Shown piece by piece: positions 3,001 through 6,986 of a stretch of 28,470 nucleotides of DNA. Every line of letters begins with the position of its first letter. Within the stretch, counting starts at the first letter, position 1. Source of the stretch: Candidatus Pacearchaeota archaeon (lineage in GTDB: Archaea > Nanobdellota > Nanobdellia > Pacearchaeales > GW2011-AR1); assembly GCA_003693875.1 (NCBI GenBank), contig RFLO01000041.1:1-28470 (forward strand), given 5' to 3'. The notes below the pieces were generated by a model. The model was not told where the DNA came from. It made no database searches and saw nothing but the letters and a program-made list of their open reading frames with translations. Position numbers and translations under genes: made by a program.

Positions 3001-4653
3001 TGTCCGAGCAGAGCTTATCTTTGGAATAACCGAAACATAAGCCACTGGCTTAACACTCACATCCAAAAGCTTTATGTTATGACTTCCAAGTCTTAGAAAA
3101 CCGCCCACCTCAACCTTGCCTACAACCCCTTTATCACCCTTTGAAACCAATCTAAACTCCGCCCCACCCGGAAAAATTCTTTCAAGATAAATCTTATCGC
3201 CGCTATTCTCCCACTTTTCTCCTTCCCCCTTATTTAGTAGCTCCCCCCCGTCAACAGAAAAGTCGGCACTCTTTTCCTCTTTGCCCTTTTTCCAATCGGC
3301 AATGCCAATAAAGTGATGCTTCCCTGCAACATAAACTCCCCTATAAGCATTTGAAAAGTCATATCCTGAACGAAGAATAAGTTTTCGCAAGCGAACATCT
3401 TCGCCATACTTATCAATAAAGGTTTTCTCAAGACTTTTTGCCTCCTTGCTTCTTCCAGTTTTTAACGCAACACGAATACCCTCAAGCAAGGCTTCTTTTC
3501 CAAAAACCCTGCCCGAAAGATCCTCTTCCGTATTTGGAAAATCATTCAAAATTTCGTAAATTGTTTCATTCATTTTTGTAAAATTTTCATCATCGTTCCC
3601 GTTTCTACTATTTCTGCCATCTCCATTCTTCTGAGCAACAAGTTCAAAAGAACCAGAACCCGCGCACGATATTTTAGCAGAAACTTTTTCGCTCTTATTT
3701 CCTCTATCAGCTTCTTTTTCAATTTGGATATTTGAAACATAGCACTGCCCATTCAAAAATCGCGAACCATCACGCAACCAAGTTTCATGGCCATCAACAT
3801 CAATCAGGACAGAGTCCTCATCTGCTACAACCTTGTTTAACCTGACCTTAAAAGAAGCACGGCAGTAATAGCCGGGAAGATAAATTGATGGGCTGCTTTC
3901 TCCAACCTTTAGGTCAAACTCCCTTAAGATGCGGTCCGGTGCCTTGAAAACTGCAATCCTTGCATGGTCGCTTGAAACATCTACTGCCCTCAAAAAAGCC
4001 TTGCCATCAAAAAACTCAGAGCGCGCATACTCTCCAAGAAGCCATTGCTCATCACTTATAACTGGAAGGTAAAACTCGCTTCTTCCCGCCCCAAATGCCT
4101 CGTCTGCATCAAAATGGATAACCGCCGTAAGGTTTCCAGATATTTTTTCAGGAAGGTCCTTTTCAAGACCCCGCCTTACCACCAAAACAACATAGCCAAT
4201 ATTCTCAATCACCGGGCTTCCAGAAATCTTTCTAAAAGACCTAACAGCTGCTCGTGCGGGATGGTAACTTATTGAAACAATTCCTTTTGGTTTTTTACCC
4301 TTAAAGTAAATTGAAGTAATAGAAGATGCTCGAATCAGTGGATTTGTCTTAACTGAGTAAAGCTGGCAAAAAACAGGCACATTCTGGTCTTGAAGCAAAT
4401 CGCTCCTGACAACGCTCGGGCTACAGCCATTTGGTGGAATCATTACAACAAAATCTGTTCCGTCTTCCTTACACTGCCCGTCACGGATTTTACTAATAAT
4501 CGGCCAGTACTTTGAAACATCTCCGCTATAAAGCCTGTGAAAGCTTGGGGGGCTGTATTGCCACGAATTAACCGGCCCGTTAAATGCCTGCTGCGATAAG
4601 ACAGGCGAAGCTAAAAAAATCAATGCAAAAGTCAAAAAAATTCCTGCTTTCAT
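1..4653 (-). CDS. Giant secreted Cys-rich hypothetical protein, >1551 aa, 3'-partial (runs off window); not in ORF track
   Basis: Manual translation of the minus frame from ATG at 4653 to position 1 shows no stop. N-terminus MKAGIFLTFALIFLASPVLSQQ is a Sec-type signal peptide. About 30 Cys and several N-x-S/T sequons. The start overlaps the upstream stop (ATGA, 4650-4653). Confidence 0.93.
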   Translation of the reverse strand, partial: MKAGIFLTFALIFLASPVLSQQAFNGPVNSWQYSPPSFHRLYSGDVSKYWPIISKIRDGQCKEDGTDFVVMIPPNGCSPSVVRSDLLQDQNVPVFCQLYSVKTNPLIRASSITSIYFKGKKPKGIVSISYHPARAAVRSFRKISGSPVIENIGYVVLVVRRGLEKDLPEKISGNLTAVIHFDADEAFGAGRSEFYLPVISDEQWLLGEYARSEFFDGKAFLRAVDVSSDHARIAVFKAPDRILREFDLKVGESSPSIYLPGYYCRASFKVRLNKVVADEDSVLIDVDGHETWLRDGSRFLNGQCYVSNIQIEKEADRGNKSEKVSAKISCAGSGSFELVAQKNGDGRNSRNGNDDENFTKMNETIYEILNDFPNTEEDLSGRVFGKEALLEGIRVALKTGRSKEAKSLEKTFIDKYGEDVRLRKLILRSGYDFSNAYRGVYVAGKHHFIGIADWKKGKEEKSADFSVDGGELLNKGEGEKWENSGDKIYLERIFPGGAEFRLVSKGDKGVVGKVEVGGFLRLGSHNIKLLDVSVKPVAYVSVIPKISSARTSAPFTFSIGIEKRAFKLNPNKSLEKAEKVERTIEKWERINKNIGKLVRGFKGACLATSAVLTLKNFFSGFSGKAIARKKVMDYYREICRESSRGNPHEILKCYEQHSSEIERDVEKVAEALKNVNQKMDSVLKKQGMVSSGGLFDKGTVINTKEYVNKLKESLKNESWSVDGVNISKDNLTTVSQVRSVLLYEELIKRQELRRIAEKTLNEGLKSLASFLKNSNNDGGGKNDRNKCSFKKGGEENLEVRYYESGRDKAYPAIVPFEFNGGFWYSYVESSGGSILENVPKGYRASGEVTYFKICSVGKNGLIEHGEGDDICQSFDINTAGSVDQFIGCEGLSPREVKALYRTGLSALREAARQYGSPRVKIFGESFSVGKPFVKIGGLECQDLMSVDECLILFNVCDPVVCPTSRCDMGGRFPVSSVIQSGVIGSIVLCLPNFNEKIYVPVCLSGIHAGIDAYLSVLKGYRDCLKENAKSGRYVGICDEITSVYKCEFFWKQVAPMTRLLIPALFESVSGSRAGVRGGGEYLFAKSAVDAFDESAKFFRDNYAKEMFRAFKLRSIEEAGSTFCRSFIGTSIPTSAKAIDKLLEPDSPTQFYARFSESVLSEATLPATSAYKVYYHIYAGKDKGVNFRIYLQSPPTSGYYVSNPTVMVKTGYVPRGETASETLDFTAPAGYKELCVEIDGQPHCGFEQVTTEFALNELSMELADEAAKNEVTSEKECIYGKPSLSSISPNIQEVVEGAVNPRADLKGIVRVCATKGSVEDSSRWRDVGYCGKENIRCFLDLKSVKEVMKKISSSGYVGTLNKLKEISSDSIQNLQTGISPSVGNTISEVNKLLGKPSVSGQDIDEALRKIVAANDSTNEEKASLLLLKVRVYAKAVLLSFAKKNARIREIGPRPAATNGPQTNQASGGSSASSSTSGSASEKNEKPESGSIIRVSDNGGNEDFYVFENLTFSLKTGERSEFAKQKFEVVKEKNKLDDENKGLTFSKIHNIFK

Positions 4654-6482
4654 TCTACTCTTACAATCAAAAGCGAATCCTCCATTAGCTCATAATTTTT
4701 CTGAAGCTCATCAAGACTCTGCGGCTCGCCGAACATCGGGACACTAATCTTCAAAACATCCCCCTTGAGCTGCTCTTCTGTCAAATACTCCTTGCTCTTT
4801 CCCCCTCCAACAAGAGCCATCTCTGACTTAGTTTCAGGAATTTCAACTTCAAAACATTTTTCTCTTGTCGCACCAAAAAAGCCGGCAAGCCCATGTTCTG
4901 GAACCTCTACACAAGTCCTTTTCTTAGAACTTGGAAAAACAATTGAACTATTGCCATAAGCATAAACCGAAACATTGTAATAGCCATCTACTAATTCAAT
5001 TGAATCCTGCTCAGGGTAGGAGGCATAGGCAGAATAGCCATCTGACTCAAAATAAACAAGGGCTCTTTCAACTTCCCCGAGATCAAGCTTTAACTTATGC
5101 TTCTTGCTTAAAACCAAAATCGCATCACTTTTGTCATTTGTAGAAATTTTTTGTTTGCCTTCGGCATACCCCTGTGCATTTGCAAAAAGAAAACCGTTGA
5201 CACATTGAGGAACCTTCGCTTTTAAAACCGCCTTTCCTCCGCTAAGCTGTGTTTCTCCAAGCTCGCAGGAAAAATCTGCACACTTAAAACTAACGCTGGC
5301 TTCAACAGGATTTAATGAGAGGTCATAAGTTGAAACTTCAATCTCCTTGTTGGCATAATCGCACGCATCAGATGTGCGGTTAGTGGATACAATCCGCGAG
5401 TTGTCTGGCATATTCCCTGAAATCAAAACAGCAATAGGAAATTGGAAAAAGTCCTCACCGTCATATAGCTGAACCATCACTGGAAAGGCAACATCATAAA
5501 CGAAGTGATACGGGACAAAACAAAAGCCAAGAACCCCAAGACCCTTCTGTGGCCCAACAGGTTTTGCAACCTCATCTCCATGAATTTCAATCTTAGTCGG
5601 CCAAGAAGGATTATACATAAAATTCACAAGGTGATTAGCTTCAAAACCGGTGTCAACAACAAAGTATTTGTTTGAAGGCTTCTCATTGTAATATGTGCCC
5701 CGAACCTTGACGGCGGGGATATTTGCCGAAAGCCCCTCCGAAATATCTTTCCTTATCTTGTCAAAAGAAAAAAACTTCGGAGAACAGCTAATCTCCACGC
5801 CAGTTACCGGAGCATAAAGCCTAACAACATCAATGGCATAATTTTCAAGAAATCTCTGTTCCTTTTCTGCATTGTAAATCATCAGTGCCTCATCGTAAAG
5901 CTTTCCAAGATTGCTGTTAAAATCAACTTCGTGTTCAAGAATTGCTGTTGACTGGTTTCCCCGAAAAACCTTGAACGGTGCATCAACAAAAACCTTCACG
6001 CCATCATCATAAATATCAACCGAAACATCTCCCGAAGTTGCATAAACATCAAAACCTTCTTTTTCAAAACTTGAAAAATCGCAATCCTCAATCCGCTCCC
6101 TTATGTATTCGGCAAGCTGTTCCTCCATTTGCTCTTTTGTCGGTACCTTTTCCCGAACAAGATTATTTCCTGAAACATAAAACCAGTAGGGAACCCCCTG
6201 ACCTAAAAAATCAAGCTCTGAAGAAAATGGCATAAAAGGAGAGCCTGGTTCAAAGACTGGTTTTTCAATATAGCCCGCAGAATCCCCAAGAAGTTTTGTC
6301 CCATACCTTGCAACATCCTCAATACAGGAAAGATAAGCATCGTAAACTGGTTTAAATTCCGAAGACACGGCACTCTTCCCACTTGGCTTGACAACAAAGT
6401 AAATCGCTATTGCCCCAACAATCACTAAGGCAACAACAACAAAAATTGTAACCTGCCCCCTTTTCAAAACCAAATTGCTCAT
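4650..6482 (-). CDS. Large class III signal-peptide (prepilin-like, KRG|Q) protein, about 610 aa, with Cys-containing extracellular domains
   Basis: LKRGQVTIFVVVALVIVGAIAIYFVV fits the type IV prepilin N-terminus. TATA TTTATATA at 6511-6504 supports the ATG at 6482 (track start is GTG 6485). Confidence 0.85.
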   Translation of the reverse strand: MSNLVLKRGQVTIFVVVALVIVGAIAIYFVVKPSGKSAVSSEFKPVYDAYLSCIEDVARYGTKLLGDSAGYIEKPVFEPGSPFMPFSSELDFLGQGVPYWFYVSGNNLVREKVPTKEQMEEQLAEYIRERIEDCDFSSFEKEGFDVYATSGDVSVDIYDDGVKVFVDAPFKVFRGNQSTAILEHEVDFNSNLGKLYDEALMIYNAEKEQRFLENYAIDVVRLYAPVTGVEISCSPKFFSFDKIRKDISEGLSANIPAVKVRGTYYNEKPSNKYFVVDTGFEANHLVNFMYNPSWPTKIEIHGDEVAKPVGPQKGLGVLGFCFVPYHFVYDVAFPVMVQLYDGEDFFQFPIAVLISGNMPDNSRIVSTNRTSDACDYANKEIEVSTYDLSLNPVEASVSFKCADFSCELGETQLSGGKAVLKAKVPQCVNGFLFANAQGYAEGKQKISTNDKSDAILVLSKKHKLKLDLGEVERALVYFESDGYSAYASYPEQDSIELVDGYYNVSVYAYGNSSIVFPSSKKRTCVEVPEHGLAGFFGATREKCFEVEIPETKSEMALVGGGKSKEYLTEEQLKGDVLKISVPMFGEPQSLDELQKNYELMEDSLLIVRVE

Positions 6483-6503: not shown

Positions 6504-6511
6504 TATATAAA
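6504..6511 (-). promoter_or_regulatory. TATA box for the 610-aa prepilin-like/giant protein operon
   Basis: TTTATATA on the minus strand ends 22 nt before ATG 6482, the same spacing seen at many genes here. Confidence 0.6.
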
Positions 6512-6522
6512 GATTGTGAATG

Positions 6523-6609
6523 TCAACCAGAAAGAAAAAAGTAAGCAAGTATTGCTAAAGCTATTAAAATTCCAAGGATTACCAAAATCGTCATCTGCGC
6601 CTTCTTCAT
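6523..6609 (-). CDS. 28-aa micro-protein consisting only of a class III signal peptide (MKKAQMTILVILGILIALAILAYFFLSG)
   Basis: ATG at 6609, TGA at 6525-6523. KKA|Q plus a hydrophobic helix, closely resembling the N-terminus of the neighbouring 610-aa protein. Below the ORF-track size cutoff. Confidence 0.6.
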   Translation of the reverse strand: MKKAQMTILVILGILIALAILAYFFLSG

Positions 6610-6610
6610 A

Positions 6611-6681
6611 TGGCCCCACCAAGAATCGAACTTGGGCCTCATCGAAGTCAGCGATGCGTTCTACCACTAGACTATGGGGCC
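6611..6681 (-). tRNA. trnV: tRNA-Val(GAC), intronless, no encoded CCA, atypical U37
   Basis: GGCCCCA/TGGGGCC acceptor stem, D-arm GTCTAGTGGTAGAAC, anticodon arm CATCG-CTGACTT-CGATG, T-arm CCAAG-TTCGATT-CTTGG, discriminator A; 71 nt. Confidence 0.88.
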
Positions 6682-6704
6682 ACTCGAAAGAAAAACAGTC
6701 CTTG

Positions 6705-6711
6705 CTTTTAA
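6705..6711 (-). promoter_or_regulatory. TATA-like box for the tRNA gene
   Basis: TTAAAAG about 24 nt upstream of the tRNA 5' end, overlapping the stop codon of the upstream small ORF. Confidence 0.5.
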
Positions 6712-6986
6712 GTCTTGCGCCTCGCTCTTCCTCCCTTAACCTGCCCCCACCTGCCACTAATAAACTCCACATCAAAATCCTTCGGATTAAAACCACAAAG
6801 CAAGCAAATGTCAAGAAAAAGGTCCTTCGGCAAAATCCTGCTTTCAACAAAATAATTCTTAAGAGTAGAATAATTAACCCTCAAGCCAAACTGTAAAAGC
6901 CCCCTAAGTGACGGCGAGTTAAGCTTTCTTATTGCAGCCTTCAAAAATTCTCTTTGCCCTCCATTGCGAAAAAAGACTCTCTCCAT
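6708..6986 (-). CDS. Small basic helical protein (about 92 aa) ending in a WGQVKGG motif; possible DNA-binding domain
   Basis: MERVFFRNGGQREFLK...YSTLKNYFVESRILP...WGQVKGG. From memory it resembles the N-terminal module of DPANN LAGLIDADG-like proteins. Alternative start at 7004. Confidence 0.65.
   Translation of the reverse strand: MERVFFRNGGQREFLKAAIRKLNSPSLRGLLQFGLRVNYSTLKNYFVESRILPKDLFLDICLLCGFNPKDFDVEFISGRWGQVKGGRARRKT

Follow-up and report, generated by a model that had tools for sequence, protein, structure and literature searches.

What does a reading frame of 28 codons encode when it starts a single nucleotide behind a tRNA gene and stops just after a prepilin-like signal and one membrane helix: a pilin stripped of its head, or the stranded front end of a gene? 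The frame (hereafter the stub) lies on the minus strand of a Candidatus Pacearchaeota archaeon contig, in a window of 28,470 nt (the whole stretch of DNA analysed here) whose other genes include those for a type IV pilus ATPase, a pair of platform proteins and pilins; the genome assembly amounts to 516 kb and is 70% complete. An earlier note on this DNA had suggested that tRNA 3′ processing releases a leaderless message for a functional head-less pilin, and had named a gene relic as the alternative. On the evidence below we lean, somewhat, towards the view that the stub is what remains of the 5′ end of a K-x-G-Q prepilin-like gene; tRNA read-through and release by RNase Z would express it as a membrane peptide that the cell tolerates.

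Anatomy of the stub

The stub (6523..6609, minus strand) runs from its ATG at 6609-6607 through 28 codons to a TGA at 6525-6523. It comprises a basic N-terminus, a class III-like site (K-A before Q), a hydrophobic helix of 21 residues (the H-domain, residues 6-26, with a best 19-residue mean hydropathy of 3.1), Ser-Gly and the stop. Immediately 5′ lies tRNA-Val(GAC) (6611..6681, minus strand), which has no encoded CCA; ARAGORN called it at 6610-6682, and the pairing of the acceptor stem gives G6681 and the discriminator A6611 as its ends. A single T (6610, minus strand) separates the discriminator from the ATG and would begin the message once RNase Z has cut; the +1 base after this tRNA is usually T in relatives as well. 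The tRNA has a TATA-like box, TTAAAA (6706..6711, minus strand), at -30..-25 from G6681, a spacing that matches other tRNA promoters in the genome, and the box overlaps the stop codon of an upstream 92-residue frame. The stub has neither a promoter nor a Shine-Dalgarno (SD) word of its own, the 60 nt upstream of its ATG being tRNA body with no TATA at -27..-29. The first T6 run 3′ of the tRNA (6535..6540, minus strand) falls inside the stub, at codons 24-25, and may act as a termination signal. Eleven nucleotides past the stub stop begins the TATA box of the next gene, TTTATATA (6504..6511, minus strand; -29..-22), which is present in orthologues too. The earlier description of a signal-only frame one T from the discriminator, lacking a TATA box and aligning with the N-terminus of the next gene up to the end of the helix, is thus accurate; the alignment is ungapped, with 10 of 27 residues identical.

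The stub is more than a chance reading frame. It is the only short frame in the genome that combines K/R-[GAS]-Q, a hydrophobic stretch and a stop, and six order-2 Markov genomes contained no frame of this type. Across 698 nt of the region, an independent Logan assembly shows no difference. RNA folding there is unremarkable (z = -0.9), the 45-codon stop-to-stop frame used as a protein query gave no matches, Pfam and NCBIfam returned sub-threshold membrane-helix matches only, and ESM Atlas scores of 0.75-0.76 to nameless clusters of 35-37 residues are at chance level. Two other ways of reading the region were rejected: a 39-residue frame that begins inside the tRNA (6642) has its start in the anticodon stem, and a read-through or frameshift fusion to the next gene is ruled out by the different frame and by a stop just before that gene's start.

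The tRNA and its surroundings have features of their own. Its anticodon loop reads CUGACUU, with U at positions 37 and 38, where the usual base 37 is a purine. U37 occurs in 43 of the 132 distinct Val(GAC) genes compared, largely from congeners, the remainder having G37 or A37; judged by these copies, it is a lineage-wide oddity and not a sequencing error. The 92-residue frame (6708-6986, minus strand; no Pfam match) accompanies this tRNA in several congeners. Two different tRNA-Val(UAC) genes are found elsewhere in this genome (G000), at C15:3666-3740 and C31:2360-2432, the second of which resembles the Val(GAC) of the window in its acceptor and T arms (81% identity).

Kinship with prepilin-like genes

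The gene that follows the stub encodes a K-R-G-Q prepilin-like protein of 610 residues (4650..6482, minus strand; ATG 6482) without a Pfam or NCBIfam match. It is present in 373 of 400 family genomes, its best homologue is 53% identical, and its homologues carry Pacearchaeota or Nanoarchaeota names. The N-terminus of the stub belongs to the same family and is homologous to both K-x-G-Q prepilin-like families, the one of 610 and the one of about 260 residues, its best peptide matches being to the N-terminus of a congener's main gene (62%) and to that of a 278-residue paralogue (68%). Profiles do not tell which of the two families is the parent, the method being 56% correct on the family of about 260 residues.

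At the DNA level the stub shares 44 of 72 nt with the 5′ end of its neighbour, which ranks only 62 of 180 orthologues, and 40-41 of 72 nt with the two paralogues of about 250 residues in the genome; the nearest known 5′ end is identical at 51 of 72 nt. A recent tandem duplication of the adjacent gene is thereby rejected and, by these comparisons, no gene of the assembly was recently copied to give the stub. The gene relic that had been offered as the alternative becomes the better reading than a head-less pilin, with the amendment that it did not arise recently from the gene next door.

Occurrence in relatives

Among 183 distinct orthologous gene starts, 177 have at least 400 nt upstream, and homologous stubs occur at three of these 177: the present one, one of 31 residues in G085 and one of 25 residues in G112. 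In 48 congeners the stub peptide matches only the N-termini of long frames, the shortest open frame being of 78 codons. Only here, among 142 tRNA-Val(GAC) contexts, does an ATG stand at +1. A profile of the two complete stubs (this one and that of G085), run against 1.84 billion representatives, found no protein of 54 residues or fewer. No orthologue with a conserved start and stop was found in relatives, the nearest genomes being distant (53% identity for the homologue of the 610-residue protein). A functional head-less pilin is therefore not supported: the refuting condition named by the earlier note, absence from relatives, holds for the 48 congeners, none of them close.

The three stubs do not appear to form a shared family of small proteins. 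The G085 stub starts 65 nt behind a tRNA, and a second contig is identical over it; G085 itself has no congeners. It has 10 of 26 residues in common with the present stub, below the median of 13 for random pairs of the family, and the two therefore look like independent events. In G085 a second copy of the tRNA 3′ end precedes the ATG of the stub by 11 nt. The G112 stub has its promoter and 5′ DNA in common with the main gene of G112, breaks in mid-helix and, by that layout, is a plain relic.

Stubs also occur at places unrelated to this locus. In L325 a stub of 38 residues stands in tandem before a paralogue of 260 residues. In L319 a signal-only frame of 34 residues (2501-2605 on a Woesearchaeota-like contig) has its own TATA and SD word within a pilus locus; it is found on 12 contigs of one species and is missing from 30 related loci. 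L327 carries a stub of 47 residues; the L319 and L327 stubs lie at unrelated places and stop at different positions. The search for short proteins otherwise yielded mostly contig-edge or frameshift pieces, and the short database 'micro-pilins' P0132, P0156, P0185 and P0225 were discarded as frameshifted full-length genes. Scattered over unrelated places, stubs of 25, 28, 31, 34, 38 and 47 residues are compatible with accidents that keep happening at the repeat-like 5′ ends common to a large gene family; repeated recruitment would explain these lengths and places as well.

The 3′ flank of tRNA-Val is a hotspot of insertion. tRNA-Val(GAC) is syntenic in relatives, and the stretch from it to the 610-residue gene differs among them in orientation, length and content: the tRNA may be inverted or displaced, and in between lie a frame of 39-45 residues, other small genes, or hairpin inserts accompanied by a duplicated tRNA end. 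The window has neither an integrase nor an att pair. Short hairpin inserts, each with a copy of the tRNA 3′ end after it, occur in L007, L009, L012 and L068 (3′ of tRNA-Val) and in L105. The conserved frame of 39-45 residues starts MKKYLLL and sits just upstream of the 610-residue orthologue (L003, L005, L007, L009, L013 and others); in front of it are its own TATA box and a repeated motif resembling TAAGTTAGT. It heads the operon in most congeners and is absent from the window; it is a candidate small DNA-binding regulator.

Constraint on the stub

Residue +5 of the stub is Leu, a position occupied by Phe in 90-94% of both families, and the stub scores at the 4th percentile of the family profile. 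Together these two features point to relaxed constraint. The stub has a pN of 0.32-0.34 against the three full-length paralogues of the genome. On the other side, a simulated copy under neutral decay at 0.3 substitutions per site had both site and helix intact in only 2% of cases. The divergence may nevertheless have arisen in a full-length parent, as in the broken G112 stub (pS 0.70, pN 0.05). A low pN/pS was rejected as proof of function, since that broken stub has a low ratio too.

A probable tRNA-led route of expression

A TATA-like hexamer lies 24-34 nt before the ATG in 124 of the 337 long reading frames of the genome, with a peak at -27 to -29, and 52 of the 337 have an SD-like word; near-leaderless messages are therefore common here. 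RNase Z is encoded, with a match above the cut-off. In addition, three other genes start almost flush with a tRNA: bcp, for a peroxiredoxin (G000 C10:4576-5100, L397), begins 1 nt after tRNA-Glu(UUC), hisS (G000 C10:10177-11400, L398) begins 2 nt after tRNA-His(GUG), and the gene for a membrane protein of 204 residues begins 2 nt after tRNA-Thr. In about one-third of congeners tRNA-His lies upstream of hisS, with a spacer of 11-74 nt when adjacent, compared with 2 nt here, so that in this lineage spacers have collapsed down to the start codons. A promoter would not fit in front of hisS, from which we infer that a tRNA-led route must work for at least one essential gene.

The stub has the same layout: its ATG lies within a few nucleotides of the discriminator, it has no TATA or SD word, and RNase Z is present. 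The junction by itself proves little, because 8 of 10 sampled tRNA-T-ATG junctions in the family open frames of 25 codons or fewer. Set beside the in-genome controls (RNase Z, hisS, bcp and the TATA peak), the proposal of the earlier note, that the stub is co-transcribed with the tRNA and freed by RNase Z as a near-leaderless message, gains support. RNA polymerase would start at the tRNA promoter and continue past the tRNA, RNase Z would cut after A73, and the resulting U-AUG message, a leaderless mRNA, would direct synthesis of a short membrane peptide in N-in orientation. The layout makes release by tRNA 3′ processing plausible, and the stub is probably translated.

In mitochondria, protein frames stand behind tRNAs on one transcript, an arrangement known as tRNA punctuation. 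Co-transcription of a tRNA and a protein gene is also documented in Thermococcus kodakarensis, where tRNA-Lys lies in the 159-nt 5′ UTR of TK0306 (PMC4247193). As with the frames of both systems, the stub follows a tRNA on one putative transcript and lacks a promoter of its own. Unlike in TK0306, its spacer is of 1 nt, so that tRNA 3′ cleavage itself would make the leaderless 5′ end; the cargo is a stub of 28 residues and not a conserved gene, and the arrangement is read here from sequence.

Relation to pilins

Archaeal class III signals have a charged residue at -2 and Gly, Ala or Ser at -1 (PMC4371748), and the stub conforms, with K3-A4 before Q5 and a hydrophobic H-domain of about 20 residues after the site. 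The EppA-type class III prepilins EpdA-E of Methanococcus maripaludis have the sites RAQI, KGQV and KGQL (PMC4371748). Like these, the stub has a basic residue at -2, Gly or Ala at -1, Gln at +1 (Q5) and then a hydrophobic helix; unlike them, it lacks the Glu at +5 of EppA substrates (Leu here, Phe in the Pacearchaeota family), a globular head and orthologues, and its cleavage after K-K-A is only predicted.

The stub stops two residues past the helix, leaving no globular head, and neither Pilin_N nor TIGR02537 matches it; TIGR02537 does match, or nearly so, three true pilins in the window. Headless and unmatched by a pilin model, the stub should not be filed as a pilin, and would at most work like the membrane anchor of one. 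Geobacter PilA-N, of 61 residues when mature, is conserved and pairs with a separate head, PilA-C. The stub resembles it as a pilin reduced towards the N-terminal helix, and differs in being about 2.5 times shorter, without a PilA-C-like partner and without conservation. An A24 prepilin peptidase was found in 44 of 48 congeners and, by profile or congener queries, in no part of the 70%-complete assembly, a gap likely due to the incompleteness. The genome presents a full pilus locus and many class III-type frames with no prepilin peptidase assembled. The H-domain of Haloferax pilins plays a regulatory part in its own right (PMC4371748), which leaves room for a function of the stub.

Origin and competing explanations

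The remnant reading would start from a signal peptide and membrane helix stranded between tRNA-Val(GAC) and the 610-residue gene, by partial duplication or gene replacement, the parent being an orthologue or paralogue and not a recent copy of the neighbour. Loss of spacer in a compacted lineage would then have brought the ATG flush with the tRNA, and the peptide would be tolerated under relaxed constraint, with no selected job, and perhaps clipped to 24 residues if a peptidase exists. The anatomy, the family membership of the N-terminus, the patchy occurrence and the hotspot are direct observations. 5′ gene remnants occur at tRNA-linked insertion hotspots, the example here being G112/L119, and the stub is likewise a promoter-proximal fragment of a neighbouring family, by a tRNA with inserts and end duplications in its 3′ flank; it differs in the lack of an integrase or att pair, and in being flush with the tRNA and, by prediction, probably translated. 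Several points stand against a remnant: site and helix are intact even though the nearest 5′ end is so distant and a neutral copy rarely remains so; the ATG is placed as in the working genes bcp and hisS, and the stop is flush with the next promoter; no decayed gene body remains, and no parent gene was identified in the 70%-complete assembly; and the stubs of G000 and G085 both stop at the helix boundary.

The main rival is a selected, lineage-specific head-less pilin, a possibility we take seriously but consider unlikely. Such a protein would have evolved from a gene stub, possibly more than once, and been kept; the tRNA transcript would encode it and an A24 peptidase would cleave it behind Lys-Ala. 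In the membrane or the filament base it might serve as core filler, as partner of the helix of the 610-residue protein or as a competing peptidase substrate. The intact motif and helix at high divergence, the exact T-ATG junction in a genome where the tRNA-His–hisS spacer also collapsed, the similar complete-helix stubs in G085, L325 and L319, the pilus genes of the window and the Haloferax H-domain all argue for it. They are offset by the lack of an orthologue in the congeners, in the 177 loci (besides unrelated stubs) and in the representatives searched, by the unrelatedness of the stubs to one another, by the lost Phe at +5 and by the missing peptidase; moreover, the searches detect only whole-helix stubs, so that the 'complete helix' is partly a selection bias. 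Slightly more doubtful is the wider proposition that Nanoarchaeia repeatedly make prepilin-like 5′ ends into selected, stand-alone head-less helices of 24-30 residues, the message here coming from tRNA 3′ processing and linking a pilus-related peptide to tRNA synthesis.

An improbable third explanation treats the stub as a translated spacer, in which ribosomes would shield the tRNA run-on from T-run termination and carry transcription into the operon of the 610-residue and 1551-residue proteins. The frame exactly fills the gap from the tRNA to the next promoter and contains the first T6 run, and a metallo-beta-lactamase frame of the size of aCPSF1/FttA (648 residues; putative identity) is present in the genome, but the downstream gene has its own conserved TATA box, the class III motif is left unexplained and 174 of the 177 loci lack a stub. 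Finally, a silent remnant that is never translated, its T-ATG junction coincidental, has very little to recommend it: T is usual after this tRNA, such junctions mostly open very short frames, and RNase Z-cut trailers carry a 5′ monophosphate and may be rapidly degraded, but a signal peptide typical of the family truly begins at this ATG, and hisS, with the same layout in the same genome, must be expressed.

Implications

As a relic, which is the reading we prefer, the stub would show clearly, on a small scale, how the tRNA flanks of streamlined DPANN genomes gather gene stubs whose expression probably comes at no cost, and it would caution that a signal-only 'micro-pilin' may be no more than a fragment. 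Were the peptide under selection, its length would be far below that of any pilin known to us, and it would test whether a bare helix can act in the assembly of type IV filaments. The context stands on firmer ground: with hisS, bcp and a membrane-protein gene starting 1-2 nt after tRNAs in one genome, tRNA punctuation outside mitochondria becomes testable by 5′-end mapping.
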